Source: Nitrosopumilus sp.
GTDB taxonomy: Archaea > Thermoproteota > Nitrososphaeria > Nitrososphaerales > Nitrosopumilaceae
Assembly: GCA_965218785.1 (NCBI GenBank)
Contig: OZ244650.1
Coordinates: 1,184,001 to 1,248,000 of the forward strand
DNA: 64,000 nucleotides
Direction: 5' to 3'
Below are positions 10,959-26,916 of the stretch, piece after piece. The position numbers and the translations under genes are program-made. Numbering within the stretch: position 1 is the stretch's first letter; the number at the start of each line of letters is the position of its first letter. Below the pieces are notes generated by a model. That model saw only the letters and a program-made list of their open reading frames with translations. It was not told the DNA's origin and ran no database searches.

Positions 10959-11090
10959 AATAATTTGGTTTTTGGCTTGGTTCATATCAAGATGTTTTTT
11001 CTCGTTCATATTCAAAACGAGCTTTATCTAGCAAGATTTCTTCAGTCTTCATTTTGAGTATTTCTTTACTGTCTTAGATTGGTCATGTTC

Positions 11091-11216
11091 CTACTTTGAT
11101 TCCTTTGCAGGGCTTTCTTCATCGTCTTTGTTTTGAGTATGTTTCTTTACTGTTTCATAGATTGGTCTTGTTCCTATTTTGATTCCCTTTGCAGGACTTT
11201 CTTCATCTTCACTCAA
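11091..11216 (-). CDS. 41-aa micro-ORF MSEDEESPAKGIKIGTRPIYETVKKHTQNKDDEESPAKESK (TTG start)
   Basis: Manual translation; paralogous to 11498-11611; lies within a degenerate ~80-bp tandem duplication (11037-11210). Confidence 0.45.
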   Translation of the reverse strand: MSEDEESPAKGIKIGTRPIYETVKKHTQNKDDEESPAKESK

Positions 11217-11497
11217 TAATTATTATTAGTAAATATGTTATTTAACCATTCTTTAGAGCGCTGTAAAGTTATCGTATGTCTAATTATCTTTAATATGACT
11301 TGATGCGAATTTTAGAATTAAAGAGTAGATACAAAATATTGGTTGAAAAAGAGAATGTTAAATGTTAAAAACGAACTTAAAGCAGATGAACCACTTGAAT
11401 CCACTATGCCAGAATCTGCCAGAGAACAGCAAAAACCAGTCATTACGTGGAGTCGATTAAAATCACAGATAAATAACAGATTTACTCACAGTTATTA

Positions 11498-11611
11498 TTG
11501 AGCGAAGATGATGAGCAACCTGCAAAAGGCATAACCATCGGCACAAAACCAGTGTTTAAAGAAGTACGACCTGCATCTAAAGACAAAAAAGATGATAATG
11601 AAGATCAGTGA
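11498..11611 (+). CDS. 37-aa micro-ORF MSEDDEQPAKGITIGTKPVFKEVRPASKDKKDDNEDQ (TTG start)
   Basis: Manual translation; PAKGIxIGT(R/K)P conserved with 11091-11216 despite synonymous codon changes. Confidence 0.5.
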   Translation: MSEDDEQPAKGITIGTKPVFKEVRPASKDKKDDNEDQ

Positions 11612-11641
11612 AGAGATAATTTTAGAAAAAGTAAAGGCAGG

Positions 11642-11786
11642 TAAAACACCTGCTGAGATGGCAGGAATAACTGCAGATGATAAAAAAGTGGAAAACGATT
11701 ATTCAAAATGCCAGTCTAAACAGGGTTTCATAACTAGACTGTTATTTAGTTGATTTTGAAATTAATAGATCGATCTTTTTTTCCAA
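11642..11786 (+). repeat. ~145-bp direct repeat copy 1: 3' tail of an IS6-like transposase plus the C-terminus of a coiled-coil gene
   Basis: Near-identical to 12302-12446 (660-bp period); encodes GKTPAEMAGITADDK/KWKTIIQNASL, matching GKTPAEQAMISVDGKNKWITLIQNSSL of the 33304 transposase. Confidence 0.85.
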
Positions 11787-12068
11787 TTTGTCAAATTTTG
11801 TATCCAATTTGTCAAATTTTGTATCCAATTTGTCAAATTTGCCTTCCAATTTGTCAAATTTGCCTTCCAAAGAGACAATATCAGTTTCAATGTTGTTTAT
11901 TTTCTCTAAAATTTTAGCATCAGTTACCTTCAAATCACCTATATTTTCCGCATTAATTTGTATATCATCTGTTACATATGTAGATATTACAAACAAGCCT
12001 AATGCAAGTATAGCTCCACCACTTATTCCACCCCATTTTAAACTAGTCAGACATAATTGTTTATTCAT
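11742..12068 (-). CDS. Heptad-repeat coiled-coil protein with N-terminal TM (Bdr/DUF1640-like)
   Basis: 21-bp tandem repeats encoding KFDKLEG/KFDKLDT; hydrophobic N-terminal helix. Confidence 0.65.
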   Translation of the reverse strand: MNKQLCLTSLKWGGISGGAILALGLFVISTYVTDDIQINAENIGDLKVTDAKILEKINNIETDIVSLEGKFDKLEGKFDKLDTKFDKLDTKFDKLEKKIDLLISKSTK

Positions 12069-12150
12069 ATCAAATTCTCTCTCCTAACATATTCATTATA
12101 TACCATTTAGTATATATCAATTCTATTTAATAAAATGATTTAGTTATAAC

Positions 12151-12183
12151 AATATAATCAAATCCCGAAGATTATACAGCACC
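12151..12183 (-). mobile_element. IS6-like terminal inverted repeat (right-end orientation)
   Basis: Reverse complement GGTGCTGTATAATCTTCGGGATTTGATTATATT matches 25360 GGTACTGTGTAATCGTCGGGATCTGATTATAT. Confidence 0.6.
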
Positions 12184-12215
12184 TTAAAAAAATGCAGGAT
12201 GTTCTGGTGGGACCT

Positions 12216-12290
12216 TGGTGGGGACCTCGCTAGAATGAGACCGCTTGCATACATACACTTTTTGAGCAAGTTGGGAGGTAAAACACCATG
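12216..12290 (+). mobile_element. Isolated left end of the IS3-like/MITE family
   Basis: Nearly identical to 26169-26243 (tggtg.ggacc..ctagaatgagaccgcttgcatacatacactttttgagcaagttggg.ggtaaaacaccat). Confidence 0.7.
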
Positions 12291-12301
12291 GTGTTAGAGA
12301 A

Positions 12302-12446
12302 TAAAACACCTGCTGAGATGGCAGGAATAACTGCAGATGATAAAAAAGTGGAAAACGATTATTCAAAATGCCAGTCTAAACAGGGTTTCATAACTAGACT
12401 GTTATTTAGTTGATTTTGAAATTAATAGATCAATCTTTTTTTCCAA
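12302..12446 (+). repeat. ~145-bp direct repeat copy 2 (IS6-like transposase tail)
   Basis: Near-identical to 11642-11786. Confidence 0.85.
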
Positions 12447-12671
12447 ATCGTCCAATTTAGAACAATTTTGTAAAACATTACCCTTGATCTCTATAACATC
12501 ACTTTTCAAAGTACCAACATCACTTTTCAAAGTACCAACATCACTTTTCAAAGTACCAATATCATCACACATCTTTTTTATGGCTTTGTGATTATTTTGC
12601 ATTTCAATATCTAATGAATCAAACTTTGTGTTCAATGTATCAAAATTTCTCTGGATAATTTCATCATTCAT
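12402..12671 (-). CDS. Heptad-repeat coiled-coil protein
   Basis: 21-bp repeats encoding LKSDVGT; same C-terminus LEKKIDLLISKSTK as 11742-12068. Confidence 0.65.
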   Translation of the reverse strand: MNDEIIQRNFDTLNTKFDSLDIEMQNNHKAIKKMCDDIGTLKSDVGTLKSDVGTLKSDVIEIKGNVLQNCSKLDDLEKKIDLLISKSTK

Positions 12672-12799
12672 ATCAAATTTTCACTCCTAAATACATATTA
12701 TAAATCAGGATATGTATATTATTTAAATATTAATCATATCAGAATAACCACGATGCCTAAGTAGTTATGGTATTTTCTGTTCTAATACAATCACAGGTG

Positions 12800-12965
12800 A
12801 TATTAAATAGGATTTTCAAACCATCCATACTGCCGTCCATACAGTTATCCCAGATTCCATATTATCTAATCTGGAATCCATACGATCTAATCTGGAATTT
12901 ACACTTGAATTTTTCATTCATTAAATCTGCTAATTCTTGAATTTCCCCAATATTAGCCACTTTAG
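12800..12965 (-). pseudogene. Frameshifted heptad-repeat gene relic
   Basis: Minus strand reads NSRLDRMDSRLDNMES in 21-bp repeats (atctaatctggaat x2) with broken frames. Confidence 0.4.
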
Positions 12966-13180
12966 GATTGGATATATACGCTAGATGTTATTAGTCCAGA
13001 TATTTAATCAGATCCCAGTAACTTTGGTACCACGATGAAGATTAGTAAAGAAACAACTTTAAAAAAAAAGTAAATACCGGATATTCTCACCGGCAACTAG
13101 ACTGAATTAAACCACAAATTCCTAATTTGTTCCAGACCGGCAGACATTGGAATTTATATCAGAATATTCCACCACTACAC

Positions 13181-13648
13181 ATGGTAAAAGGCAGATCAAG
13201 GTACTGGAAGATCAACTCAGACGAGATGGACGATTTTGCATACGATCAAAGCAAGTTGTTAAACTGGGAGATCAAATGTATCAGGGAACCAGAAGAGGAG
13301 GCGCACTTTATCGGGGTATTCATGTATAGAAACGGGACCGCATATGACTATGAATCAGTAAAGGGGATATGTTACTTTCACAACAACATTGAAAGAGGCG
13401 AACTCTCATCAGTTACCAGTTTTCTAAAGGAGAGATTCGGCGGCAAGGAGATGGAAAAAGGTGAGAGGATATTCCTCAAGGATTCAAAAGAGATCTATGC
13501 CAGCAGGGACATCCAGGATCTGGCAAAAGAGATGGAGAAAAAATTCAACACAAAGGCAGTCATCTCCCTGGAATTTGAGGACCTTACTGCAGAGCAGCTC
13601 AAGGAGGCAGGACTGCCAGAGTCAAAACTACTACCAATTCCCACATAA
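13181..13648 (+). CDS. Hypothetical protein, probably conserved in thaumarchaea
   Basis: Clean ORF with core-like codon usage; ATG at 13181 about 25 nt after tttatat; leads the tat operon. Confidence 0.7.
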   Translation: MVKGRSRYWKINSDEMDDFAYDQSKLLNWEIKCIREPEEEAHFIGVFMYRNGTAYDYESVKGICYFHNNIERGELSSVTSFLKERFGGKEMEKGERIFLKDSKEIYASRDIQDLAKEMEKKFNTKAVISLEFEDLTAEQLKEAGLPESKLLPIPT

Positions 13649-13677
13649 TTGATATAGCTAAAACACAAAGAGACGTC

Positions 13678-14469
13678 ATGTCAGAACTCGATGGAATCAA
13701 CAGGCATCTTGAGGAACTAAGAAAGAGCCTGCTTCGAATCGTGCTAGTCATCGGCATTATCACCGTAGTGATTCTGACGTTTCACATCGAACCAATCGAG
13801 GTGGGAGAGACCACGTTATACTACATAACACCAGAACCGCTAGACAACATCGCAGCGCAGATTACCAGCTACATGAAGGATATCCTCGTCCCCCCCGGCG
13901 TCCAGCTGATTCAGACGGCACCAGGACAGGCATTCTTTTCACAGGTATACATTGCAGCACTAGTCGGAATCGTAGCCGGGATGCCAGTCATCATCAGGGA
14001 GCTAGTCGGGTTTATCAGGCCGGCGCTAAAGGAAAACGAGATCAACATCAGCAGGAGCATCACACTGCCCGCACTGGGGCTGTTTGCTGCAGGCTGCATC
14101 TTTTCATATAACTTTGTGATTCCATACATCCTGGAATTCCTATACAAGTACGGCGAGTCTGCCGGACTGGTAACATTTCTTAATATAATGGATTTTGTCA
14201 CGTTTGTCCTGCAGTTTCTGCTGGCATTCGGGCTTTCATTCCAGCTTCCGCTGATTATGTATGCGGTATCAGAATCCGGCATGACATCTCCGGACTTTTG
14301 GCGGAAAAACATACGGTACGCAGTCGTGATTATTGTGATCTTCGGGGCAGTCATCACCCCGGATGGAAGCGGCGTTACAATGTGGTTTATTGCAGGCCCG
14401 ATGATCGTACTATACGCGGCAGGCATGGCAGTAATCGAGCGCAGGGAACGTAAAAAGTCGAACACTTAA
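13678..14469 (+). CDS. tatC: Twin-arginine translocase subunit TatC
   Basis: HLEELR, FIRPAL, FGLSFQLP, AVITPD; about six TM helices. Confidence 0.95.
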   Translation: MSELDGINRHLEELRKSLLRIVLVIGIITVVILTFHIEPIEVGETTLYYITPEPLDNIAAQITSYMKDILVPPGVQLIQTAPGQAFFSQVYIAALVGIVAGMPVIIRELVGFIRPALKENEINISRSITLPALGLFAAGCIFSYNFVIPYILEFLYKYGESAGLVTFLNIMDFVTFVLQFLLAFGLSFQLPLIMYAVSESGMTSPDFWRKNIRYAVVIIVIFGAVITPDGSGVTMWFIAGPMIVLYAAGMAVIERRERKKSNT

Positions 14470-14493
14470 ATCCAAATTTGATCAAACAGATGC

Positions 14494-14700
14494 ATGTTTG
14501 GAGCGGGCCTGGCCAATTTTATCGCGGGGCAGGAATGGATCTTTGTCATAGTTATCGCAGTAGTCCTGATCTTCGGCGCAAAAAAGATCCCAGAGCTTGC
14601 AAAGACGTTTGGCAAGGCAAAAGGCGAGTTTGAGAAGGGAAAGATCGAGGGCGAAAAAGAGCTAAAGGACCTCAAGGATAAAGAGACGAAAACTGACTAG
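14494..14700 (+). CDS. tatA: Twin-arginine translocase TatA/E
   Basis: TM followed by IFGAKKIPELAKTFGKAKGEF amphipathic helix. Confidence 0.93.
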   Translation: MFGAGLANFIAGQEWIFVIVIAVVLIFGAKKIPELAKTFGKAKGEFEKGKIEGEKELKDLKDKETKTD

Positions 14701-15158
14701 TCACGTCTGGTGGCAGCAGCGGCATCTAGCAGATCATCAAGGATGGCCTCATATCCCAGTTTAAAGTTATTTCTGCCAAACAGGAAATTCGACATCATCA
14801 TCATCATCATACCCCCGAGTTTCAAATCCACATCTACTACCACCCTGGTGGTGCCGTCTTTTGGAACATCAAAAAACCGCTGCCGGATATAGCTTCCCCT
14901 TGCATCCCCGCCGATGACAAAAACCTCGTGCATGACGGGCCTGTCAAGAACGTGCTTGGCCATGATCACCAGTTCCCGCCCCCCAAGATTCATGTGCTCC
15001 TCCACTACTGCAACGTTTCCGCGCACCGAGCGCACACGGACTGACGGGAAGTGTCTTGGAACCAGTCTCTGATAGTTTTCATAGCCGGATAATGTTTCAT
15101 ATACGGTCTCCCTGTCTGTCTCTATAATTTTTTCAATGGAGAATCCTGATGCGGCCAT
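14697..15158 (-). CDS. SRPBCC/polyketide cyclase-like protein
   Basis: IETDRETVYETLSGYENYQRLVP N-terminal motif; TAATG overlap with the ubiX stop; poly-Met tract. Confidence 0.7.
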   Translation of the reverse strand: MAASGFSIEKIIETDRETVYETLSGYENYQRLVPRHFPSVRVRSVRGNVAVVEEHMNLGGRELVIMAKHVLDRPVMHEVFVIGGDARGSYIRQRFFDVPKDGTTRVVVDVDLKLGGMMMMMMSNFLFGRNNFKLGYEAILDDLLDAAAATRRD

Positions 15159-15718
15159 TAAATGGCGCTGCCCCATCGCGGGTATAAATCGTGATCTATA
15201 TCAAACTGGTCCAGGCATTTTCCCACGCCGTGATTAATGATGTCGTTAATTGATTTGGGTTTTGTATAAAATTCCGTAACAGGGGGGAGTATCACTATTC
15301 CAAGCCGGGATAGCTTTAGCATGTTTTCTAGATGGATTGCAGAAAGCGGCGTCTCCCGGGTCATCAGGACCAGTCTTCGTGATTCCTTGATTGTAACTCC
15401 TGCGGCACGTGCAATCAAGGTCTCGTCATACCCGTTTGCAATTGCAGATAGCGTCTTCATGCTGCAGGGGGCAACTATCATCCCGTCGATGCGGTGCGTG
15501 CCACTGGATATGGCAGATGCCATATTTTTTTCATCAGATATTCCAGTTGCAAGCGAGCGTACATAGTCTGACGAGTATTCAGTCTCCATGGAGATGCACT
15601 TTTCGGCCCATTCTGAGATTATCAGATGTGTTTGAATGTCAATTTTTTTGAGGAACTCCAGCATCCGGATGCCATAGATTACCCCGGTGCTGCCAGTAAT
15701 GCCAATGATTAGCTTCAA
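15158..15718 (-). CDS. ubiX: Flavin prenyltransferase UbiX
   Basis: GITGSTGVIYG, APCSMKTLSAIANG, RETPLS. Confidence 0.95.
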   Translation of the reverse strand: MKLIIGITGSTGVIYGIRMLEFLKKIDIQTHLIISEWAEKCISMETEYSSDYVRSLATGISDEKNMASAISSGTHRIDGMIVAPCSMKTLSAIANGYDETLIARAAGVTIKESRRLVLMTRETPLSAIHLENMLKLSRLGIVILPPVTEFYTKPKSINDIINHGVGKCLDQFDIDHDLYPRWGSAI

Positions 15719-15790
15719 CAGTTAGTCTTGGAACATACGGTATTTTATCTGTTAGATTGGGTAGTCACAGGGCAGTCTCTGTCTTGCCGT

Positions 15791-16012
15791 TTAGGTCTCG
15801 TCATATTGGGTCTCATCGTTCCGGGTCTCATCATTTTGGGTAGTAACAGCAGCAACAGCAGCAACAGCAGCAGCCGCATCTATCTCCCTCTGCCTCTTCC
15901 TCATCCTCCTCCTTTTAAGCCACATCGAGATCCCGCCTGCTGCCATCGCAGTCAGTAGAATCACCCCTGCCATCTGCAGTTCAAAATTATAAAGCACACC
16001 ACACATCATCAA
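15791..16012 (-). CDS. Small putative membrane protein, low complexity
   Basis: TM segment, basic cluster, poly-Ala and DET repeats; may be spurious. Confidence 0.3.
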   Translation of the reverse strand: MMMCGVLYNFELQMAGVILLTAMAAGGISMWLKRRRMRKRQREIDAAAAVAAVAAVTTQNDETRNDETQYDET

Positions 16013-16091
16013 CAGTCAAAAAAAAATCTTGCGGTTTTTACCGATCTCCGGATTAAATTAGCTATATTAGATCCCACCACACAGGCATACC

Positions 16092-17183
16092 ATGATCAAG
16101 GGCTCTGAGATCAGAAAGATGGTAAACAGCTACACAGACGTAAGAATCGGGGTCCTTGGCAGCCACTCGGCGCTGGAGATAATGGATGGTGCAAAAGACG
16201 AGGGCTTTCAAACCACGGTATTTTGTCAAAAGGGAAGAGAAACCCCGTATCAGCGATTCAAAAGGATCGCAGATGAGATCATAGTACTAGACAAATTCAA
16301 GGACATGGCCCTGGCCAGAACTCAAAAACAGATGCGAGAATCAAACACAATCATAGTTCCGCACAGATCACTTACAGTATATCTCGGATACGACACCATA
16401 GAGAACTCGTTTAACGTGCCCATCTTTGGAAACAGAAAGTTGTTTCAGGCAGAGGAGAGGACTGCAAAAAAAGGACAGTACCACCTCCTGCAAAAGGCCA
16501 GGATAAAATATCCCAGGTTATTTACGGATCCGAAAAGAATCGACAGGCCGTGCATCGTAAAGGTTCAGGAAAAAAACCGGCCTTTGGAGAGGGCGTTTTT
16601 TACGGTTTCATCCTACAGGGACTATAAGGAAAAATCAGATGCGAGAATCAAACAGGGCCTCATCGCAAGAAAGGATCTGCAACAGGCAAGCATAGAGGAG
16701 CTGGCAGTTGGAACGTACATGAATTTTAACTTTTTTCACACCCCGATTTCAGAGCAGGTGGATTTTATCGGAATCGAGAGGAGGCTGCAGACAAACATCC
16801 ACGATTACAACGCGCTGCCTGCAAGGGAACAGATGGAGATGGATATTGATCTGCAAAACATCGAGGTCGGCCACACCCCTGCAAGCATCAGGGAGTCGCT
16901 GCTTGAGAAGGTAATCAGGATGGGTGACAAGTTTGTAGCGGCAGTCAAAAAAGAGTACGCCCCTGGAATCATCGGCCCGTTCTCACTGCAAAGCGTGATT
17001 ACCAAGGATCTGGAACTCGTAGTATATGACGTGTCCCTGCGCGTTCCAGGAAACCCGATAGTGGCAACTACCAGCCCATACACAAAATACCAGTATGGCA
17101 AGACATTTGGCGTGGGAAGAAGAATAGCAATGGAGATAAAGCGGGCCCAGGAGGAGGACAGGCTAGACGAGATAGTGACGTAA
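16092..17183 (+). CDS. purP: Formate--phosphoribosylaminoimidazolecarboxamide ligase family (PurP, ATP-grasp)
   Basis: GVLGSHSALEIMDGAKDEGF, IIGPFSLQ, GRRIAMEIK. Confidence 0.9.
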   Translation: MIKGSEIRKMVNSYTDVRIGVLGSHSALEIMDGAKDEGFQTTVFCQKGRETPYQRFKRIADEIIVLDKFKDMALARTQKQMRESNTIIVPHRSLTVYLGYDTIENSFNVPIFGNRKLFQAEERTAKKGQYHLLQKARIKYPRLFTDPKRIDRPCIVKVQEKNRPLERAFFTVSSYRDYKEKSDARIKQGLIARKDLQQASIEELAVGTYMNFNFFHTPISEQVDFIGIERRLQTNIHDYNALPAREQMEMDIDLQNIEVGHTPASIRESLLEKVIRMGDKFVAAVKKEYAPGIIGPFSLQSVITKDLELVVYDVSLRVPGNPIVATTSPYTKYQYGKTFGVGRRIAMEIKRAQEEDRLDEIVT

Positions 17184-17372
17184 TGATATAAAAAAAATAC
17201 AAAGACATATTTCCGGCAGGAGTCAAGCGTATCTGTTAATTGGCTAGATTGGGAAATATTCAATACCCAACGTCTGGTCTCAAATAATTAATCGGTTTGA
17301 TCTTTGGGGCAAGACTGCTGGATGCCAATTAACAATACAAACTCTTTTTTGTCCGGTTAAAACACGGTACAC

Positions 17373-17636
17373 ATGGGCAGAACAGTCTTTCTCAAAGAGA
17401 TAATCACCATATCAAAAGAGCCAAAACTCTGTCCCACGTGCAAAAAAGACGACAGGCTTGAAAAGGACGTCATACAGGAGGGCAGGTCCAACGGGAGGAC
17501 GGTTCTCTGCTCCAGGTGCGAGGCGCTAACTGTAGTTACAAGCCAGAATCTAAAAACCGTGGAGCTATCCTCAAAAAATGATGGCGTGCACATCATGCTA
17601 AAGGAGCCCTACCTGATCAGAAAAGTGACGTACTAG
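17373..17636 (+). CDS. Small Zn-ribbon hypothetical protein
   Basis: CPTC...CSRC. Confidence 0.7.
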   Translation: MGRTVFLKEIITISKEPKLCPTCKKDDRLEKDVIQEGRSNGRTVLCSRCEALTVVTSQNLKTVELSSKNDGVHIMLKEPYLIRKVTY

Positions 17637-17887
17637 TAGTCCTCACCGGTCTTTTCCAGTAATTTTTTGATGATATAGCCGCGGACACTTGCAATCTCCC
17701 AGTCCCTCAGATTTGCATTTTTACACTCCTCCCTGATTATCAGACCTGCCAGGCCGTCACTCCAGATGTGGCGTCTGGGATCATATACTGCGATTATTTT
17801 TCCGTGCTTTTTGATCCTGATTCCCCCGTGGCACCGCTCAATCACCCGAAGTGCTGTTTTCTGATAGATTTTTTCAAAGTCGGCCAT
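17633..17887 (-). CDS. Hypothetical protein
   Basis: 84-aa ORF with core-like composition, convergent with the Zn-ribbon gene. Confidence 0.65.
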   Translation of the reverse strand: MADFEKIYQKTALRVIERCHGGIRIKKHGKIIAVYDPRRHIWSDGLAGLIIREECKNANLRDWEIASVRGYIIKKLLEKTGEDY

Positions 17888-18278
17888 ACTACTGTGAGTT
17901 GTCTGTTCATCTCAAAAAGGTTATGATTTGAACTAGTTCCCATCAGTAAGTTATCGGGATCTGAAATGGGGCATTCTGATGGATGGTTCGATAACCAGAT
18001 AAAACAAAAACGATTTTCTAGCCATCTCATGTTGGTGATGCCTTTTTACAGATGAAAGAAAATACGTCTGGAATATTTTTAATAATATCAGGACCAGATC
18101 GTCATATTATGATTTAATAGAATAGAACTCTGTAATTGCAAGACAGACAAGATCACATATAACCCATCTAGATAAATTGTGGGAAAAGGTTAGCAGTGTT
18201 CTAATTTGGTGGCTCCCGCCATTAATTGAGATAATTTTAGGGATTGATGAAAAATTTGAATTAATTATCTTGTCTCAC

Positions 18279-18300
18279 TTATATACTGATTTAGTATATA
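18279..18300 (+). promoter_or_regulatory. TATA box embedded in an inverted repeat (tatatact-gattt-agtatata)
   Basis: ttatata about 24 nt upstream of ATG 18309; 8-bp arms. Confidence 0.45.
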
Positions 18301-18308
18301 TTATCATT

Positions 18309-18455
18309 ATGGGAACAGATTCTATGTCTCAAGATAAAAAACGAAATCCATTGGTTAATACCTCATATTTGAGTCAATTTATTAACGACGAAGTCAATTC
18401 CAGCACTAAAACAAAAAATGAACTTCCTCTTTCGAATAAAATAATAAACAGATAA
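18309..18455 (+). CDS. 48-aa hydrophilic peptide leading the proteasome-like pair
   Basis: ATG correctly spaced from the TATA box; ends 13 nt before the next gene. Confidence 0.4.
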   Translation: MGTDSMSQDKKRNPLVNTSYLSQFINDEVNSSTKTKNELPLSNKIINR

Positions 18456-18468
18456 TACACAAGATCGC

Positions 18469-19116
18469 ATGTATGAAATTTTAGGTGCGATTGCAAGTCA
18501 TAATGGAGTTGTAATTGTTTCTAATGATAAAGATGACGATGTGCAGGATACTGTTGTTTTTAAAATAAATCAAAATTCTGTTGCTGCTGTTGTTAGAGGT
18601 AAAGTGAAAGTGAAGGAATTTTTAGATAAATACATTATTCCTAAAACTCCCAAAACTACTCAAGATACTATTACTTTAATCCAAAAGGAAATTCAAATAC
18701 ATTCTGCAGAATATGCTAAATCTAACATTTCATTTTTTATAGCAGGTTATGAAAATAATAAAGGAGGGTATTTTGCAATTTGGTTTGAGAATGAAAAATT
18801 ATACTCGCGTGTGATTCCAAAATTTTCTCATTTTATATATTTTATGGAGGATTTAACAACATACATCATCTCAAAAGTTTTCTCCGAACAAATGAGTATA
18901 GATGAATTGAAAAATCTGATGGGGTTTGTAACCTTACAATGTATCAAAGTTTTTGGTTTGAATTCTTCTGTTAATATCACTACAATAAGTAAGGATGGGA
19001 TAAAGGAAATGTCTAAAGGTGAAGTCAAAGATCTGCTATCTACTCAAGATAAAATAGATCATAAATTAAAGAAAATTTTTAGTGATTTCTTTGTTAATGG
19101 AGCTTCTGATAAATGA
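18469..19116 (+). CDS. Proteasome-subunit-like Ntn-fold protein lacking the catalytic Thr1
   Basis: ILGAIASHNGVVIVSND, FFIAGYE, VNITTISKDG mirror the neighbouring protein; no N-terminal Thr. Confidence 0.6.
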   Translation: MYEILGAIASHNGVVIVSNDKDDDVQDTVVFKINQNSVAAVVRGKVKVKEFLDKYIIPKTPKTTQDTITLIQKEIQIHSAEYAKSNISFFIAGYENNKGGYFAIWFENEKLYSRVIPKFSHFIYFMEDLTTYIISKVFSEQMSIDELKNLMGFVTLQCIKVFGLNSSVNITTISKDGIKEMSKGEVKDLLSTQDKIDHKLKKIFSDFFVNGASDK

Positions 19117-19835
19117 CTCTTGCATTTGCATTACGTGGAAGTAATGGACTGGTTCTGGGTGCTGACAGTAGGGTTTCAAGTGCATTAGGAAGTGCGGATA
19201 CATCCACAAAATTCTTACAGGTAAATCGAGAAATAGGAATTTTAACTTATGGTCTAGCTGAAGTGGGATACAAGAGTATCCATTCTATAGTTGATCAGGT
19301 TAATGGTTATTCTGATTTTTCAGCCACGGCTACTCCTAGAATAGTGCATTTTTCTGAAATAACTAGGAAAACTCAAGAAATTTGTAAAAAAACTTATGAT
19401 GATATTGTAACAGAAATCAAGAAAAAAGACCCTAAAATAACTGATAGAGATCTAACTGTGGGATTCATACTTGCAGGATATGACGCTAATGAAACAAATC
19501 AATTTAAGATATATCATTTTGAAAGTCCAGACTTCAAAATAGAGGAAAGGCCGGGGGATATTATTGCTGCAAAATGGCATATTTCCCAATTTCTATCTAA
19601 CCATTTCTATTATCAAGAAATGGATGTAGAACAACTAAAACGATTGGCAAGTTTTATGTTAATTGAAACTGGAGTGATATCTACTTCTGTAGGAGGTAAA
19701 TTAAAGATTGCAACTGTAACATTAGAAAATGGTTTTCAATTACTTAACGAAAAAGAAATACAGGGGATTATTTCTGAAAATCAACCTCGTTTTGCAAAAT
19801 ATAGGAGAATTTTATTAGATAATTTACGATCTTAA
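19113..19835 (+). CDS. Proteasome beta-type (Ntn) threonine hydrolase
   Basis: M-T1LAFALRGSNGLVLGAD17SR...K32...YG46, FILAGYD, SVGG; ATGA overlap with the upstream paralogue. Confidence 0.8.
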   Translation: MTLAFALRGSNGLVLGADSRVSSALGSADTSTKFLQVNREIGILTYGLAEVGYKSIHSIVDQVNGYSDFSATATPRIVHFSEITRKTQEICKKTYDDIVTEIKKKDPKITDRDLTVGFILAGYDANETNQFKIYHFESPDFKIEERPGDIIAAKWHISQFLSNHFYYQEMDVEQLKRLASFMLIETGVISTSVGGKLKIATVTLENGFQLLNEKEIQGIISENQPRFAKYRRILLDNLRS

Positions 19836-20447
19836 TTTCTTTAAAAATCAAATTTATGTAATTAAATTAAACGTATTTTTCATTTTCAAGTATGATACGT
19901 TGATCTTGCTGTGAATAAAATACTGCAATATCCACTGTATACACGCTTATGATGCCTGCCCCACACTCTCCTTTTTGGACGGCATCATCTGTTTCCACAA
20001 GAAACACAAGTGGACAGATAAGACGCAGATTTCTAGCACGAGAGATGATTTGATGGAAGAGTCATAATAATAATATACCACAAAAACAAGGTTGTACTAG
20101 CTGATGATTAATCAATAAACTAAGCTATTCCTGATAGATGATGAGTTTGCCGAATTATGAAGCAGAACCGTTTTTATGGCATATGATGCCAGACCCAAAA
20201 ACAAACAGTTGCAGACATCCTCAAGTTAAAAAAGACACCTTCAAAACCGCATTAAACATTTGGTACCACCAGATATGCCGTCATACAGAAAATGGCATGC
20301 AGACTACAAACAGGGTGGTTGCCTATCTTAGTTTCAGTCGTATTTGATCCTTCTCTCTCCCTTCTTTTTTACGCCGCATCAAAACGGCCATCAGATTCCA
20401 AACATCCTCGCTAGATACGCAGATCATAAAAACTCCCGGGGCATAAA

Positions 20448-20885
20448 TCAGACACCCATCGCCTCCTTGAGAAGGTTCCTTCTAATTAAAATGGGAATGT
20501 TATACAGCGATGCCAGCGCCATGGCATCAGATGCCCGATAGTTTCTCAATATCAGATCCTTCTTGCCTGTAAAGTACAGATTTGCCCGCAGCACCTTGCC
20601 GCTTTCATAGATTTTTACCTTGACTAGAACCAGTTCATTTTCTTCACAAATTTCCTCGATCATCCGATAAACTGACGGGATCTTCTCTGCCTGTTCCTTT
20701 CCATCAAAACTTGAGATGTGCCTTACAACCTCGCCGGAAAACGCGCGCATGGGAAACTCTTTTCCATCATCGGCCTTTAACACGGCGATCCCCTCAAGTG
20801 CATACGGATCAACAAACCCCACGTAATCAATCTTGACTGATTCATAATCAGGCTCCTGTGCTTGATTGATGTCCATGATATGCAT
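20448..20885 (-). CDS. Bifunctional nuclease family (DUF151) protein
   Basis: RASDAMALA...PILI motif. Confidence 0.8.
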   Translation of the reverse strand: MHIMDINQAQEPDYESVKIDYVGFVDPYALEGIAVLKADDGKEFPMRAFSGEVVRHISSFDGKEQAEKIPSVYRMIEEICEENELVLVKVKIYESGKVLRANLYFTGKKDLILRNYRASDAMALASLYNIPILIRRNLLKEAMGV

Positions 20886-21004
20886 AACTGTGCTTTATAC
20901 TTATAAAGATAGCAAAATCTAGGGATCAGACGGGTAAAACAGCGCAAACTATTTTGTAACAATCAGGATTATGCGCAATACCAAATTATTTAAAATCCCC
21001 AATT

Positions 21005-22834
21005 ATGGATAGCTTGTTGTCGACAAATCCGGGGCGATCCGTATCATACGTGCTAAGCAAGTATGTTACAAAATACATGGATACAGACGTGCTGATACTT
21101 GATCAGGGTACATCCACAAGGGATGCCACCAGAATGCTGCAACACTACGAGACAGACGATATAGTAGTCACAGATAACAACAATCTTCCAGTCGGAATTG
21201 TAACAGACCAGGATATCCTAAGCAAGGTCAGTGATGTTACCGTTTACGCAGAGGCCACCACGCTCAAGGACATCATGAGTACGCCGCTTATCACGATCAA
21301 TGAAAAAGCAACGCTGCAGGAGGCCTTGAATAAAATGAGATCCAACGACATCAGAAAACTTCCCGTAATAACAAAAAAGAACCAGGTAGTCGGGATGATC
21401 CTGCAGACGGCCATCGCAAACGTGATTAGAGAAGCTACTGGCACCCCGCCGCGTCTTTTGAGCCCTCCTGTAAAGGCGGTTCTGGGAAACCTCGGGTTTG
21501 TCCTGCAGTTTGCAGGAGTCCTGCTGATAGTGCCTGCCATCGTTGCAACGCTGCTAGAGGAGACCACTACTGCCACCGGAATTTATCTCACCACGGTCCT
21601 TTTGCTAGTTACGGGATTCTTTTTGAACTCTTATGGCGAGAAATCAAGCCTTAATTTACAGCAGGCCTCGATTCTGGTCTTTTCAAGCCTGTTTCTGCTG
21701 TCGTTATTTGGCACCATACCGTATCTGTACGTGTTTCCCAGCGATGATACGGCAGTAGAGGTGTTTGGAAACGCGTTTTTCTCAAGCGCGGCAGGATTCA
21801 CAACCGGCGGAATCTCGTTGTTTGACGAGCCAGAAAACCTCTCGCAGAGCTTTACATTCTACCGTAGTTACACCCAGCTAGTCGGGGGCATGAGTTTCAT
21901 CTATCTGGTGATTACGGCGTTTTATCCCGAATCAAAGTTACAGTCCATGCGCGGTTTCATATCAGGAAGAACGCTTCACATGAAGGAGCTCTTTTCGACC
22001 ATCACCGTCATCTTTGCCGTATACATCATAATTGTTGCAACCCTGCTGTATATCCTGGGGGAGCAGGAGAGCCTGCTAGATGACTTTTCACTGGCAATGA
22101 GCACGCTGGCAACAGGCGGATTCATCCCGACATCAACGATTCTTGATGGGTTGCTGTGGCAGGAACAAGTCGTCTTGATGGGGGCGATGATACTAGGTGC
22201 GCTGCCATTTACGTTCCACTATGCGTTTGTCAGAAAAAAGTTCCTCTCACCAAAGCTTGGAAAGGAGGTCCTGACATATTTTTCAATACTGGCAGTGGCA
22301 ATAGTCCTGTTTACTGCCATCAGCGGCCTGGATCCCATACAGGGCGCGTTTTATTCCATATCAGCTAGCACCACAGCGGGATTACAACAGGAGAGTCTTG
22401 CAGGACTTGGAGGCGGGGCGCACACCATCCTGATAATTCTGATGCTTATCGGGGGGTGTGGATTCTCAACTGCAGGCGGCCTGAAGATATTCAGGCTGTT
22501 TCATCTGTGGGATGTCCGGGCATTATTTAGCAAGATAAAAAGGGACCAGTTATCAAGGCAGGCAAAAAAAGAGGTCATTGCAACTCTGATCATAATAGCG
22601 TTATTCCCCATAATCTCCGCGGTGACCGGGGCGCATCTTGCTGCCATCGAGGATGTGCCGTATCAGGAGGCGTTCTTTGAGGCAGTAGGAGTCATCACCA
22701 CCGGGGGGCTGTCTGCGGGGGTGATTGATTCAGATACGGATCCTGCAACAAAGATAGTTCTGGGGTTTCTGATGATATTTGGCAGGCTGGAGATTATTGC
22801 AATCATCTACATTTTCATCCCCAGGCTTAGCTAG
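21005..22834 (+). CDS. trkH: CBS-pair / TrkH-type potassium transporter fusion
   Basis: N-terminal CBS pair; four pore loops (FTTGG, LATGG, STTAG, ITTGG); GGCGFSTAGGLK; MIFGRLE. Confidence 0.88.
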   Translation: MDSLLSTNPGRSVSYVLSKYVTKYMDTDVLILDQGTSTRDATRMLQHYETDDIVVTDNNNLPVGIVTDQDILSKVSDVTVYAEATTLKDIMSTPLITINEKATLQEALNKMRSNDIRKLPVITKKNQVVGMILQTAIANVIREATGTPPRLLSPPVKAVLGNLGFVLQFAGVLLIVPAIVATLLEETTTATGIYLTTVLLLVTGFFLNSYGEKSSLNLQQASILVFSSLFLLSLFGTIPYLYVFPSDDTAVEVFGNAFFSSAAGFTTGGISLFDEPENLSQSFTFYRSYTQLVGGMSFIYLVITAFYPESKLQSMRGFISGRTLHMKELFSTITVIFAVYIIIVATLLYILGEQESLLDDFSLAMSTLATGGFIPTSTILDGLLWQEQVVLMGAMILGALPFTFHYAFVRKKFLSPKLGKEVLTYFSILAVAIVLFTAISGLDPIQGAFYSISASTTAGLQQESLAGLGGGAHTILIILMLIGGCGFSTAGGLKIFRLFHLWDVRALFSKIKRDQLSRQAKKEVIATLIIIALFPIISAVTGAHLAAIEDVPYQEAFFEAVGVITTGGLSAGVIDSDTDPATKIVLGFLMIFGRLEIIAIIYIFIPRLS

Positions 22835-22907
22835 CATGATGGTAATCTTTTATCTGACGATATTCTAATCCATACAGGAATGATGCAGATGATTCTAAAA
22901 ATATAAG

Positions 22908-23642
22908 TTGTGCAAATCCCGGGAGAATACAGATGTTCGGAGCTGCATGGTCACGATGAAATTGAATAAAATATACGTTGGAATCATTGTATTATCTGTA
23001 ATTGTGGTATCTTTTGGAATCCTGTCATACCATGAAGAATCAGATTACGATGTACAGTATTTTACTCCTACAGTCAAATTGGCAGATGCACGAGCTGTGG
23101 ATATTATAACACCTCCAGAATTGTGTACTGACCTGTTAAATGATCTAAAAAAACAACATCCTGGCAAAATCAAGACACTACGTATGCTGCCTGATGGGTA
23201 TAAACTGACATCTTTTAGTGGTGATTTTAGTTTTGATTCTGATGGCATTTCGGCATTTACGTTTTATGAATCCGGAGATACTGAGTGTGGTTCCAGTATA
23301 CCCGGTAGTCCGTCTACCCATGGCATGATTAGCATAATGATACAAACATATGATGACTCTGAATTTGATACAATGGCACAACTAATTGCATGGGTTGCTG
23401 AAAAAATCCGTATAGAAAATCGCACCAATGTCATTGAAATCAATGGATATATGACTTGGGCCAAACCACCAAAACTTGCAACTGAAGAAGTTTTGTTTAA
23501 AAATGGAACCGTACTTCACACCCAAAAAGTTACACGTCCTGGTTATGTAACCGTGCTTGATGAAGAGAGCGACTTGGTATACCGGATTGAAGGCTATTTT
23601 TCATTGGATGATCTCAAAATAATGGCAGAATCCCTAAGATGA
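22908..23642 (+). CDS. Membrane-anchored/secreted hypothetical protein (start may be later)
   Basis: Hydrophobic signal or anchor after MKLNK; C-terminal SLDDLKIMAESL. Confidence 0.6.
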   Translation: MCKSRENTDVRSCMVTMKLNKIYVGIIVLSVIVVSFGILSYHEESDYDVQYFTPTVKLADARAVDIITPPELCTDLLNDLKKQHPGKIKTLRMLPDGYKLTSFSGDFSFDSDGISAFTFYESGDTECGSSIPGSPSTHGMISIMIQTYDDSEFDTMAQLIAWVAEKIRIENRTNVIEINGYMTWAKPPKLATEEVLFKNGTVLHTQKVTRPGYVTVLDEESDLVYRIEGYFSLDDLKIMAESLR

Positions 23643-23752
23643 AAAGATTATTTTTATCTCTTGGTTCCATCCTTCTTGTGGGGTATCCCTGATGTCATGC
23701 AGACGACTGCATTACATTTTTTAATTAGTTCAGCACCAAAAGGATGTAAATT

Positions 23753-24690
23753 TCAAATTTTCTGTCCATTTAAATGAGGAATTATGGATTCGTTGAGAAA
23801 GTCCTCCAATTTGTTTTTAAATTCAATGAATTTGCCCTCATCTACATCCCGCAAAAGGAGATTCTTTTCATCGCCCCATCTAAATAATTCTCCGGACTTT
23901 AACAATTCTAGTTTTGCCTGTAAATTAACACGATATTTTCTATTCCAATTTGTGGAATGGTTTATTTTTTTAATTGAATTTTCTTGTATTTCAGATAGCA
24001 ATATGTCGAATTTCCCACATACCAAAAAAATATCCAAAAAATCTCGGGCCTTTATTCCCCGCCTAGTCATTATTGCACGAATTTTTTCACACAATATCTC
24101 TTCAGGTCTGTATACATGGAATTTCAGCTTCTCAAAATAGGGGTGTGATTATCAAAAACATAACTCAAACTTTCATCTTCTGAAACAAGGCTTGATAGGT
24201 CTCTTAATTCTGAATCATAACAGATACGTTCTACGAAATTGAATTGAATTTTTATCTCAGATAACTTTTTCTCAATTTCTGACTCGTATCTTACAAACAG
24301 GGTAAGCATTTTGCCTCCTCCACCAAATGCAAAATAACTGGGATTGTTTTTTTCAGCTTTAAAGTCAAGAGAAAATTTTACTGCGATTTTTTCAAAAAGC
24401 TTGCCTATCTGTTCTGCTTGAACAGATGTATACCTCTCAATTCCTTCATGGGATTTTCCAACAAATATGAACTGATCATTCCATGTAAAATCTAGATCTT
24501 CTGAGAATCTATAGTATCCCAAATATGCTTTTATTAGACAAGTTCCTCCTTTGAAAGTAAAATTATTTGAAAAATAGCCATCTTGGCACAAACAGGAAAG
24601 AATTTCATGCAATATTATGTCCTTTTCAAGTAGCGCCCTCTTCCGGATAGAAAACTTTTCAGATATCTTATTAATTAATTTCTCTCTCAT
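23753..24690 (-). pseudogene. AbiEii-family nucleotidyltransferase toxin, split by a single frameshift near 24140
   Basis: EKD, FKGGTCLIKAYLGYYRFSEDLDF in ORF1; EEILCEKIRAI...RDFLD in ORF2; frames join across the G4 run. Confidence 0.8.
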
Positions 24691-25309
24691 GTAATATCTC
24701 CTGAATTACTTTTCTCGTAGTTTTTGGATAATGTTTTGAATATTTTTTCATTATATCCACGGATACGTTCAGACTCCAATCATATACATCTGAAATTATT
24801 CTTTTATTTGATTTTCCATTGTATTTTCCCAAATAAATAAAATCAAGGATTGTTTTTTCTGGATCAGAGAACTTTGTCATTCCATGTTTTTTTATTCCAA
24901 AACACATTAATTTTTTTGAAATTTTTATAAATCTGAATTTATGATCGTCTATTGTCATTGGATTTTGTCGGAATATCGAATCGCTGATAATATAGTCGAC
25001 TGTAAAAGTCTCATGTGTCATGTTATTAAATTTGAGTGCGGTGTAAAGACCACAATACCAATTTTCTACGCCCTTTATCTCAAGTCCTTTTGCAACTAGT
25101 TCAAGATGATTGTGTCTAGTATTACGAACAGGGGGAACTACGTGAAATATTCCTCGAAATATTCTTTGCAGGTATTTTTGTGCTTCAAGATATTTTATTG
25201 CATTATCATATTGAAATCCTGCAATCTTGCAGAATTCTTTTATCTCATATGCGGTGACAAATTCCTGTCCTCGGACATCCAATCTTTGCATGAGATCTGT
25301 GATCATCAT
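24671..25309 (-). CDS. AbiEi-like type IV antitoxin / transcriptional regulator
   Basis: wHTH with RIFRGIF, YCGLYTAL, SDPEKTILDFIY; overlaps the AbiEii start. Confidence 0.8.
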   Translation of the reverse strand: MMITDLMQRLDVRGQEFVTAYEIKEFCKIAGFQYDNAIKYLEAQKYLQRIFRGIFHVVPPVRNTRHNHLELVAKGLEIKGVENWYCGLYTALKFNNMTHETFTVDYIISDSIFRQNPMTIDDHKFRFIKISKKLMCFGIKKHGMTKFSDPEKTILDFIYLGKYNGKSNKRIISDVYDWSLNVSVDIMKKYSKHYPKTTRKVIQEILHEREIN

Positions 25310-25359
25310 TTATATCACAATCTCTTATATCATATGCTATTTTAATATATATCATAATC

Positions 25360-25392
25360 GGTACTGTGTAATCGTCGGGATCTGATTATATC
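25360..25392 (+). mobile_element. IS6-like terminal inverted repeat (left-end orientation), orphan
   Basis: GGTACTGTGTAATCGTCGGGATCTGATTATAT resembles the TIR at 28865 and the ends at 12183 and 43767. Confidence 0.6.
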
Positions 25393-25503
25393 AGGTTCAC
25401 TGTAGAGTAATTGTAGCCATATCTTGTTTTTTCAATCTGCATGTCACAGATACCAATGGTATTGTTGATATGGTACCATTTTGTCAACTTTGGGTTCAAG
25501 AAA

Positions 25504-25677
25504 TTACGTAGCGGTTTCTTTTCTCTTGGCAAGGTACGGCTGCAGGTCTGATTTTATCTCTTCTGGAATGTCCTCGTATTTGAACAGTCCCATAGTAAGA
25601 CCCTGCAAAATGTTGGGCAACGTAAGCCATTCGGTTTTTAGATGGGGCGGACCGAATGTGTTTTTGTACCTCTTCAT
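25504..25677 (-). CDS. 57-aa hypothetical protein (MKRYKNTFGPPHLKTEWLTLPNILQGLTMGLFKYEDIPEEIK...)
   Basis: Manual translation, below the ORF-track cutoff. Confidence 0.4.
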   Translation of the reverse strand: MKRYKNTFGPPHLKTEWLTLPNILQGLTMGLFKYEDIPEEIKSDLQPYLAKRKETAT

Positions 25678-25763
25678 GATATAAAGTCTACACTCCCATT
25701 ACTTAATCATTATCACGGATTTTCGTGCATAATTTTTCCCTATCTCAAGTATTTTGTCTTCAT

Positions 25764-26078
25764 TTACTCCATGATTGATCGGATAGGATACATCCCGTAC
25801 TCGTATCCCTCTTGACTAGTCCATCCTCCAAACAATGGAAGCATGTCAATGCAGACAACCTGCTCATATGCAGGTTCCAAATCTTCAATGCCGTCCTTGT
25901 TGTTGGTAATAGCTATGATGTATAACGGATCCCTGCTGTTTGAGAACATCCTGTGCAATCTTTTGGCATGTATCGGATTTCCCACTGCGTCAAAACCTTC
26001 GCCCGTAGTTGGGTCAAATGAATAGTTTGCAAGGTCAGTGTCGTCTAGAAAATATTCAAGTCTCTTTATAGCATCCAA
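25764..26078 (-). CDS. Hypothetical protein, possibly 5'-damaged
   Basis: 104-aa ORF; its upstream ~83 bp (26086-26168) is duplicated at 27371-27454. Confidence 0.45.
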   Translation of the reverse strand: MDAIKRLEYFLDDTDLANYSFDPTTGEGFDAVGNPIHAKRLHRMFSNSRDPLYIIAITNNKDGIEDLEPAYEQVVCIDMLPLFGGWTSQEGYEYGMYPIRSIME

Positions 26079-26168
26079 ATATGGAGAACCTGCGTATTAT
26101 TCTGCATTTCTTTCATTAAGAAAAGAATTTAAAACAATTCCAGAACTTGTTCATTTATTATCATTAAA

Positions 26169-26517
26169 TGGTGAGGACCCCCTCTAGAATGAGACCGCTT
26201 GCATACATACACTTTTTGAGCAAGTTGGGGGGTAAAACACCATTTCCAAATACCATACTCAAAGCAGAACTGACATGTCGAATCATTCCACCGGACACTC
26301 AAAAAAGGGTATTTGTGGCCACACGAGTTTGCAAGTTATCAGGATGTCGAGGCAGTCATTGCAGATGCATGCAGGATTACAACCACTCTAGGATCCATTC
26401 GGCACCGGGATATGTGACTCCTGAGGAATTCTTATCAGAAGGGGGGATGAGAAATAAATAATGGTAACTGTATGTAAAAACATGCAAAAAGCGTTCTCAT
26501 TAGAGGGGTCCACTCCA
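26169..26517 (+). mobile_element. IS3-family-derived MITE / internally deleted IS
   Basis: TG...CA ends with imperfect TIR (tggtgaggaccccctctagaatgagaccgctt vs revcomp tggagtggacccctctaatgagaacgctt); internal DYNHSRIHSAPGYVTPEEF matches the integrase-core C-terminus. Confidence 0.7.
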
Positions 26518-26547
26518 ATATTTTAACTGGTCATGATGGTTTGAAAC

Positions 26548-26916
26548 ATGAAACCAACCTTAGATGATATAATTTCTAATTTGAACAATAAATTTAATGT
26601 CACAGATATCAAAACATTAAAAGAATTTCTTTATAATCTGATTCAGACAATAGATAATTTTGGCGAACGGTTCATCCAGGTTACAGATATGATAAACGAG
26701 TTCGTGAATACAAAAGCTAGTGGGTCTGAAAACAAAATAGATGTTTTCAGAGATGAGGAGATTGATGATTTTGAGTCAATAGCAATAGAGTGTTACATAA
26801 AAGGGGCAACTAGTATTCAGTGTATTCAATGGACAGATGAGGTTATTTCAAAAATAATTGGTATTGATGAAAAAATGTTAAATCTTCTTCAAATAGAGGT
26901 TATTCCTCATGAGTAA
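26548..26916 (+). CDS. Hypothetical AT-rich protein
   Basis: 122-aa ORF; no recognisable motif. Confidence 0.5.
   Translation: MKPTLDDIISNLNNKFNVTDIKTLKEFLYNLIQTIDNFGERFIQVTDMINEFVNTKASGSENKIDVFRDEEIDDFESIAIECYIKGATSIQCIQWTDEVISKIIGIDEKMLNLLQIEVIPHE

Follow-up and report, generated by a model that had tools for sequence, protein, structure and literature searches.

How the proteasome arose from dead and live paralogues is an old question, for which the single-subunit relatives HslV, Anbu and BPH have been the only simpler comparators. The window analysed here, the whole stretch of 64,000 nucleotides (nt) taken from contig OZ244650.1 of Nitrosopumilus sp., holds a small, rare and self-contained module that repeats the dead/live design at 215 and 240 residues, with no propeptide and no ATPase. 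Translation of its open reading frames (ORFs) places three genes on the plus strand within 18309-19835, encoding a small protein, a protein named A and a protein named B in this study (Table 1). An initial annotation of the locus had described these ORFs as a 48-residue protein, a 215-residue protein A without Thr1 and a 240-residue protein B coupled to A through ATGA, and this description agrees with the sequence. Such a module would show whether a hetero-oligomeric architecture arises readily within this fold and what the dead subunit contributes to it, and the module is expected to be easy to express and solve.

One live and one dead subunit of the proteasome fold

Protein B begins with MTLAFALRG. 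With Thr counted as residue 1, it contains Asp17, Arg19, Lys32 and Gly46, and TSVGG is found at residues 190-195 of the translated protein. Lys32 and Gly46 of this B are the equivalents of canonical Lys33 and Gly47. The Met-Thr start, Asp17, Lys32, Gly46 and SVGG had all been named in the initial annotation, and both the sequence and the family alignment confirm them. Throughout the B family (51/51), Met is followed by Thr (42) or Ser (9), and Asp17, Lys33 and Gly47 are invariant. The superfamily-level Pfam model PF00227 matches B at 31.5 bits (cut-off 22.4) over residues 4-50 only, and the NCBIfam alpha-subunit models give 18.7 and 17.5 bits, for which the cut-offs are 219 and 287.35. A profile of 35 B-family sequences matches alpha subunits (2.5e-7), beta subunits (7.4e-6) and Anbu (4.4e-4) in the PDB, and from these similar E-values B is about equally distant from alpha and beta subunits. 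The AlphaFold2 (AF2) model of B is a complete proteasome subunit with a predicted local distance difference test (pLDDT) score of 87.2 and a predicted template modelling score (pTM) of 0.85. Its predicted helices are H1 (residues 49-64), a long H2 (80-105), a short helix (111-114) and a C-terminal helix of 27 residues. In structural comparison by VIA-align, where Z values differing by no more than about 1 count as ties, the model of B scores 24.0 to Rhodococcus beta (root-mean-square deviation (rmsd) 2.7, 211 aligned), 23.6 to Thermoplasma beta, 23.0 to Anbu (rmsd 2.8, 217 aligned, residues 2-240) and 21.8 to yeast alpha5.

Protein A begins with MYEIL and has no Thr after Met. On its own, it has no Pfam match, no PDB sequence match and no match to an NCBIfam proteasome model, and its nearest clusters in the ESM Atlas are unnamed or 16% PF00227. 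Comparison of the two families by hhalign joins A to B at 97.3% (E 2e-11, 198 columns). The AF2 model of A (pLDDT 85.6) has the same order of strands and helices as that of B, Foldseek assigns it to the proteasome fold (E 1.2e-8), and VIA-align gives Z values of 18.3 to yeast beta4, 17.7 to alpha5 and 17.6 to Thermoplasma beta. The N-terminal nucleophile (Ntn)/proteasome fold of A, at first a guess, is supported by all of these comparisons. Each of the two models has a C-terminal helix of about 27 residues, and in both strand S1 starts at residue 4, with no N-terminal extension/H0 or YDR motif. In the A family, Thr or Ser is present at position 2 in 4/36, Lys33 in 0/36 and Gly47 in 4/36, so that the canonical beta-subunit set of Thr1, Asp17, Lys33 and Gly47 is found in the B family and not in the A family. 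Family profiles and predicted structures establish A as a dead subunit with the proteasome fold and as a divergent paralogue of B.

Pairing, divergence and mobility

Scans of genomes and metagenome contigs yielded 104 loci, in which all ORFs were translated and scored with hidden Markov models (HMMs) of the A and B families. A B-type gene of at least 160 bits is present in 64 rows, which comprise the window and 63 loci, a set drawn from two collections in which some loci are near-duplicates. Eight of these rows cannot be judged, six having less than 400 nt of upstream DNA and two having no N-terminus of B in the locus. An A-like gene lies upstream of B in 55 of the 56 testable loci, in agreement with the earlier expectation that the pair is conserved together. 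The two genes are adjacent in 43 of the 55 (18 with a 4-nt overlap including the window, 24 with gaps of 0-30 nt and 1 with another overlap). In 10 others the A-like gene is 689-928 nt upstream with one nitroreductase gene between, and in L070 and L072 the divergent upstream ORF is recognised by hhalign only (98.0%, E 1.7e-13). Overlaps and gaps were counted in the 53 rows whose partner was detected by HMM. Among named records, the pair occurs in archaea and also in Chloroflexota, Bacillota, Pseudomonadota, Nitrospinota and Nitrospirota. By this comparison of loci, archaea and no fewer than five bacterial phyla inherit the A and B genes together as a coupled unit. Among five bacterial host assemblies, B is the sole PF00227 match in two, and none contains two strong matches. 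Judged by these assemblies, the pair is independent of a canonical 20S proteasome. One metagenomic copy (L083:144-1643) has A and B each split over two frames and represents either a decaying copy or a sequencing error.

More distant relatives of B, referred to here as group S, keep all catalytic residues in 30/30 and have no partner gene. These proteins of 230-250 amino acids share the motif DSRGTxGDPRG (MTL..L.G.DGLVLAADSRGTxGDPRG) and occur in Actinomycetota, Acidobacteriota, Spirochaetota, Dormiibacterota, Promethearchaeota and Bathyarchaeia (loci L010-L024 and L085-L111). From Gly47 to strand S5 there are 70 residues in B of the window, a median of 59 in the B family and 60.5 in group S, a spacing that fails to separate B from group S; in the genome's own PsmB/PsmA it is 51/55. 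When the A-family profile was searched against 1.84 billion representative proteins, 232 matches were found at E up to 0.001, 71 at 1e-10 and 17 at 1e-30. Many of the weaker matches are of B or S type, and there are about 40 A-type clusters overall.

Trees were built after exclusion of rows with fewer than 170 profile positions or 180 residues, exact duplicates and three truncated rows, with the genome's own PsmA1/2 and PsmB1/2 as outgroup. In a quick LG+G4 tree of 121 rows, support by the Shimodaira-Hasegawa-like approximate likelihood ratio test (SH-aLRT) is 95 for A, 98 for B and 97 for A+B, and these clades are set apart from S and from the canonical subunits. The subclades of A and B in this tree mirror one another. 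A more careful tree (52 rows, LG+C20+F+G4) supports the B clade at 100/99 and the A clade at 84/83. The suggestion that the pair is not the housekeeping PsmA/PsmB holds, as neither protein groups with the genome's own copies in the trees. Judged by these phylogenies, A and B represent two old families that are separate from PsmA/PsmB. In 519 of 528 locus pairs, conservation is lower for A than for B; between the window and L032, for example, identity is 58% for A and 90% for B.

The boundaries of the islet that holds the module were determined by comparing window 16000-22900 with five same-genus genomes by blastn and realigning the junctions. The points equivalent to window 17878 and 20065 are separated by 57 nt in genome G036, and those equivalent to 17878 and 20065/20100 by about 94 nt in G007; from this spacing, 17879-20064 is an indel holding only this module. 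G006 and G007 have the same empty junction as G036, and none of the three carries the islet at the syntenic position. It is bordered by a conserved 84-residue gene on one side and a conserved small-RNA-like element on the other. The extent of 18279..19835 given earlier was therefore too narrow, while the claim that the islet is richer in AT than the flanking core genes stands: its GC content is 31.8% compared with 44.0% for the remaining window, and GC is 0.28-0.34 at 18000-20000 compared with 0.44-0.51 on either side. A protein query for B gave no match in 60 relatives (36 from its genus and 24 from its order), and a profile query at E up to 1e-20 gave none in another 300 genomes sampled from the phylum. 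The contigs that carry the closest relatives (L032, L036 and L039) have 32.6-34.4% GC, like their operons, and the GC of the islet agrees with these values. Acquisition of the islet from a low-GC lineage is the simplest reading of this composition. The empty sites, the absence from relatives and the composition of the closest relatives' contigs all bear out the proposed horizontal acquisition, and genome comparison shows the module to be an accessory unit that has moved horizontally. The islet ends have neither a convincing target-site duplication nor an att-like repeat, only 12-nt repeats at chance level; no integrase marks them, and there is no tRNA in window 10000-30000. An integrase gene lies 3' of B in L036.

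Known families and the proposed mechanism

The 20S alpha and beta subunits (PsmA/PsmB, PrcA/PrcB) have the same fold and are likewise dead and live paralogues encoded side by side. The pair differs from them in that A lacks the N-terminal gating extension, and B lacks the propeptide, has AAKW in place of GSG/Ser129 and has an extra long C-terminal helix. It also differs in its dead-then-live gene order with overlapping codons and in being located on a patchy accessory islet rather than among housekeeping genes. The host genome also encodes two PsmA and two PsmB. Its PsmA copies carry GYDRAITVFSPDGR and YDMTPTMYSPDGR, an N-terminal extension with the YDR motif that is absent from A and B. PsmB1 has the propeptide MYFLSNNVEEKILHG before TTTVG as well as GSGS, and B has neither feature. 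In the genome's second canonical beta subunit (L027:1483-2079, outside the window), ...MPGATAVGITF stands where the first has ...HGTTTVGIK, with Ala aligned to Thr1. This second housekeeping beta subunit is, by its sequence, probably catalytically inactive.

Anbu (PDB 5NYW, 5LOX, 5NYJ) shares with B a single Met-Thr domain of about 240 amino acids with no propeptide and no ATPase partner, and it has a long C-terminal helix that aligns with B over model residues 2-240. Anbu is a single-subunit homo-oligomer whereas B has a paralogous partner, and the sequence match of B is weaker to Anbu than to alpha and beta subunits. Anbu genes are usually accompanied in their operons by ATP-grasp, alpha-E and transglutaminase-like genes. 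None of these three families is among the Pfam matches of 25 scanned loci (140 neighbour ORFs, 21 of the loci being of adjacent-pair type) or among the neighbours in the window. Despite the Z value of 23.0, identity with Anbu is ruled out by the paralogous partner together with the missing Anbu operon families. An HslV identity was also rejected, as no NCBIfam HslV model matches at E up to 1 and there is no adjacent ATPase. No HslV chain is present among the 60 listed of 77 PDB sequence matches of the B profile at E up to 0.01, and BPH (PDB 5OVS) is not among the matches listed for B in sequence or structure searches. Based on Pfam matches of neighbours, no ATPase is adjacent to the pair in the window, as had been noted earlier, and none is recurrent among the 25 loci.

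Connectase is a propeptide-less Met-Thr proteasome homologue that acts as a sequence-specific ligase (PMC7980362; Fuchs et al., 2021, PMC8665760). It is a monomer without H1 and H2 and has a two-helix insertion between S3 and S4 (PMC8665760). Connectase of Methanosarcina (PDB 6ZVZ) and B are both propeptide-less archaeal Thr1 homologues, and here a possible peptide client is encoded nearby. Identity with Connectase was rejected on the model of B, which has H1 and H2 and is predicted to have just a disordered 7-residue loop, with no helical insertion, at residues 19-33.

Fuchs, Alva and Lupas reported 22 new proteasome homologues, most of them accepted by conserved active-site residues (PMC8665760). 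These were clustered with CLANS at P 1e-10, with WP_012956871.1 representing PHI and WP_040339656.1 representing WPH; WPH and group II are described as about equally similar to alpha and beta subunits, a long C-terminal helix or coiled coil is predicted for WPH, ACC and some PHI, and PHI has a helical insertion after H1/H2 (PMC8665760). The homologues described in this source share with B a propeptide-less Met-Thr/Ser start, Thr1/Asp17/Lys33/Gly47, a scattered distribution over archaea and bacteria and the lack of an AAA+ partner. The PHI row of Table 1 in that paper fits the taxa of B, with Bacillota and Pseudomonadota present and no Actinomycetota seen, and its WPH row fits group S, with Actinomycetota, archaea and no partner. 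By these taxa and the descriptions, group S is probably the WPH family. The B family very probably sits among the 22 homologues as a PHI- or WPH-like member with PHI as the best fit, a comparison made by description and taxa only. The authors of the 2021 catalogue state that they found neither a genomic context nor a co-occurrence pattern, and its accessible text makes no mention of a dead partner gene, of coupling between such a gene and B, or of the small protein. PMC10936438 and PMC13022661, in their accessible parts, merely cite the 2021 paper on these families. NCBI names three B-family members 'hypothetical protein'. No description of the dead partner or of a defence role was found in the literature, on which supplements and an external dataset may bear. 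The label 'new system' in the initial annotation is overstated for B; A as the dead partner and the small protein seem not to have been described before. The partner gene gives a concrete new handle on at least one family of the 2021 catalogue, which reported no genomic context.

The reading that we favour, with a probability of roughly 0.6, is that A and B form a hetero-oligomeric, ATPase-independent Thr-peptidase with A as its non-catalytic scaffold and specificity subunit and with the small protein acting, in one clade, as a client, an inhibitor or an aid to assembly. Methionine aminopeptidase accepts Thr as the second residue, and removal of the Met of B by this enzyme would expose Thr1 without autoprocessing. 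As B would be born 'mature', its activity would have to be controlled by assembly. Produced from the overlapping cistron upstream, A would keep pace with B and could co-assemble with it through ring-type contacts and the long C-terminal helices, as in Anbu. Only B would cut in the resulting hetero-oligomer. With no unfoldase gene nearby, the complex may act on peptides or unfolded proteins without ATP. A, which evolves faster than B, would most likely set the admitted substrate or partner, and the small protein would serve as an accessory of the archaeal clade, whether as client, inhibitor or assembly factor. We infer here the binding of A to B, its stoichiometry, peptidase and not ligase chemistry, and the cellular role.

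Several findings weigh against this proposal. B lacks the equivalents of Ser129, Asp166 and Ser169 of canonical beta subunits, AAKW replaces GSG, and the columns aligned to GSG are Ala-Ala in 43-44 of the 51 B-family members; peptidase chemistry is therefore assumed from the triad alone. The careful tree does not join A and B, and B groups with S at 30/42 support. The A+B grouping occurs in 67% of 200 bootstrap trees under the mixture model and is not rejected by the approximately unbiased (AU) test (difference in log-likelihood 0.34, p 0.487). Both topologies remain, so that no claim of a single duplication after S is made. No fused A-B protein was found among 2251 longer candidates, which is weak evidence. 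L037:838-1569 is the only B-type gene without an A-like gene within 846 nt upstream. This locus has the end of an aquaporin-like ORF upstream of B, and Leu replaces the otherwise invariant Arg19. A locus with B and without A is what would be expected if B alone were a homo-oligomer like Anbu or BPH and A were a decoy, inhibitor or chaperone restraining it. The partner-less group S with its full catalytic set indicates that the fold can function alone, and some safeguard is plausible for a protein with no propeptide; however, the overlaps of 4 nt and an almost universal co-inheritance are at least equally compatible with stoichiometric co-assembly, and A retains the complete subunit fold including the C-terminal helix, and we consider this alternative unlikely. 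The precedent of Connectase for propeptide-less Met-Thr homologues (PMC7980362; PMC8665760), together with the small protein and its fixed NPLVxTS motif beside the pair in four of five archaeal loci, would be in keeping with a transpeptidase or ligase in which B, aided by A, cuts and religates a motif and the small protein is the natural substrate. This is quite improbable given that B has H1/H2 and no two-helix insertion over the active site, opposite to Connectase, that PF00227 is its only relevant Pfam match, and that neither L039 nor any of the bacterial loci has the small protein. Entry of A and B into the ordinary 20S proteasome of the host as alternative subunits is very improbable: the genome does encode a canonical set and the B profile matches alpha and beta about equally, but A has no alpha N-terminal extension or YDR motif, B has no propeptide and scores far below the NCBIfam alpha cut-offs, B is the sole PF00227 match in two of five bacterial assemblies, and the pair is not found in the 60 relatives that share the host proteasome. 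It is hardly more credible that the genes are a non-functional passenger, recently acquired and either not expressed or decaying, for which the strong compositional mismatch with the host and the L083 copy with both genes split by frame breaks could be cited. The three ORFs are intact, A and B are conserved against L032 to the degree given above with the catalytic residues kept, and the small ORF has 12 synonymous changes over 44 codons against the same locus.

A role in conflict or defence, with A/B as an accessory immune or addiction protease that might, for instance, destroy proteins of the host or of an invader when triggered, the fast-evolving A as sensor and the small protein as inhibitor or trigger in archaea, is suggested by the foreign islet of 2.2 kb, the extremely patchy distribution (0/60 and 0/300 genomes) and the much faster divergence of A. 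Of the 21 adjacent-type loci, 11 have a Pfam family of toxin-antitoxin, restriction or mobile-element type no more than about 3.2 kb away (10 of 21 if an MqsA-like match below the cut-off is dropped), a raw count without background control in which the loci are related, not independent, and two clades supply six of the eleven. This islet-borne distribution and these frequent neighbours make the module a candidate for an unrecognised conflict system. Against this, PADLOC-DB 2.0 has no matching family for the small protein, A, B or two neighbours at E up to 1, and PHROGs has none for the small protein, A or B. Viral contigs gave four matches, all distant (24-26% identity over about 128 residues) and none of B type. 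A variant clade with Ser1 lies in a metabolic-looking cluster, and the small protein is missing from bacterial loci. Overall a defence role is rather doubtful. A bolder form of the idea, equally to be regarded with doubt, is that A/B represents an independent second invention of the live/dead division of a ring on mobile DNA, working as a conflict system in which the rapidly evolving A would sense an invader or stress and license B, always 'mature' for lack of a propeptide, with the small protein as a built-in inhibitor or processed signal in archaea. If this were true, archaea and bacteria would share a class of protease-based immunity or addiction modules not recognised before.

The small protein, neighbouring genes and other features of the window

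The small protein is encoded upstream of A in the window. A second ATG at 18324 (43 amino acids) is an equally possible start, and the ORF is nested in a longer TTG ORF at 18177-18455. Homologues adjoin the pair in L032 (E 1.6e-28), L033 (3.2e-21) and L036 (2.7e-12), as found with a 3-sequence HMM over six-frame ORFs; the matches in L032 and L033 are partly circular as these sequences built the HMM, and that in L036 is independent. The sequence is MGTDSMSQDKKRNPLVNTSYLSQF...SNKIINR in the window, ...QDKKQNPLVNTSFLSQF...SNKVINS in L032, MTKKADNPLVSTSFL...SNKILYED in L033 and MTSKKQENPLVNTSLMSQF...SNKIVK in L036. In L036 the gene precedes A but lies on the other strand, so the small protein has a gene of its own and is not merely a leader. 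Over 44 codons, the small ORFs of the window and L032 differ in 25, of which 12 are synonymous and 13 non-synonymous. Counting the window, the small protein is thus beside the pair in all archaeal loci but L039, where an unrelated small ORF is found at that place, and it was not found in bacterial loci. It has no match in Pfam or NCBIfam, as in PADLOC and PHROG, and its best score in the ESM Atlas is 0.77, under the level of a lead. As far as sequence comparison goes, the small protein is real, linked to the pair and an accessory of one close archaeal clade.

Upstream of the small ORF, two TATA-like elements form a putative archaeal promoter, and the stretch ACTGATTT.GTATATAT recurs 5' of the homologous small ORF in L032. 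A TATA/palindrome had been annotated at this place; the TATA-like elements are present, but the palindrome is weak, being a 14-nt inverted repeat of 86% complementarity with arms 113 nt apart. Sigma-70-like sites occur at the shuffled expectation, a test that is irrelevant for an archaeon. No intrinsic-terminator-like site was found at the islet, and Rfam has no match over 17000-21000 at E up to 1. The coordinates of the features are collected in Table 1.

Table 1. Coordinates and properties of the features of the islet (positions in the window)
Feature	Position	Strand	Properties
AT-rich islet	17879..20064	none	2186 bp, 31.8% GC; contains this module only; from blastn against same-genus loci and GC
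Two TATA-like elements	18281..18303	+	TTATATA 18281-18287 and TATATAT 18297-18303; 5' of small ORF; putative archaeal promoter
Gene of small hydrophilic protein	18309..18455	+	48 aa; motif NPLV(N/S)TS(F/Y/L), C-terminal SNK(I/V)
A, catalytically dead proteasome-fold paralogue	18469..19116	+	215 aa; no N-terminal extension; long C-terminal helix 183-210
ATGA overlap of A stop codon and B start codon	19113..19116	+	from sequence; read as translational coupling
B, proteasome-fold subunit	19113..19835	+	240 aa; Met-Thr1, no propeptide; C-terminal helix 213-239

The families behind the neighbourhood count are varied. PemK is near the pair in L003, L004 and L059, and PIN in L002, L008, L043 and L044. 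Eco57I methylase and IS110 are present in L008, McrBC in L051 and DUF5615 in L039, and AAA_15/AAA_21 accompanies the integrase in L036. In the Ser1 variant clade (L073, L074, L075-L077, L079-L082 and L009; e.g. L073:3150-5554), a nitroreductase gene stands between A' and B', the pair is followed by M20 peptidase and polysaccharide pyruvyl transferase genes, and CbiM/CbiQ/ABC transporter genes come before it, with NikR in two loci. By gene content this is a conserved, metabolic-looking cluster (CbiMQO-NikR ... A' - nitroreductase - B'), unlike the islet context. Alpha-2-macroglobulin is a protease-trapping inhibitor, and a bacterial member, split into two ORFs, lies directly upstream of A/B in an Anaerolineae locus (L001:259-5127).

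The neighbours of the islet in the window are core genes common to relatives, namely those for a Zn-ribbon protein, the 84-residue protein, a BFN-domain protein and a CBS-TrkH transporter. To the right of the islet, a 100-nt element at 20065-20164 is 85-91% identical in same-genus genomes, compared with 72-76% for flanking genes, and additional copies occur elsewhere in G007 and G036. It contains a conserved ATAATAATATA box followed by TGATGA ... CTGA ... TGATGA ... ATGA and, with no Rfam match, looks like a C/D-box small RNA of archaea that carries a promoter of its own. Other stretches of 27-33% GC in the window, at 12400-13000, 23600-25200 and 26600-27000, are possibly further foreign islets.

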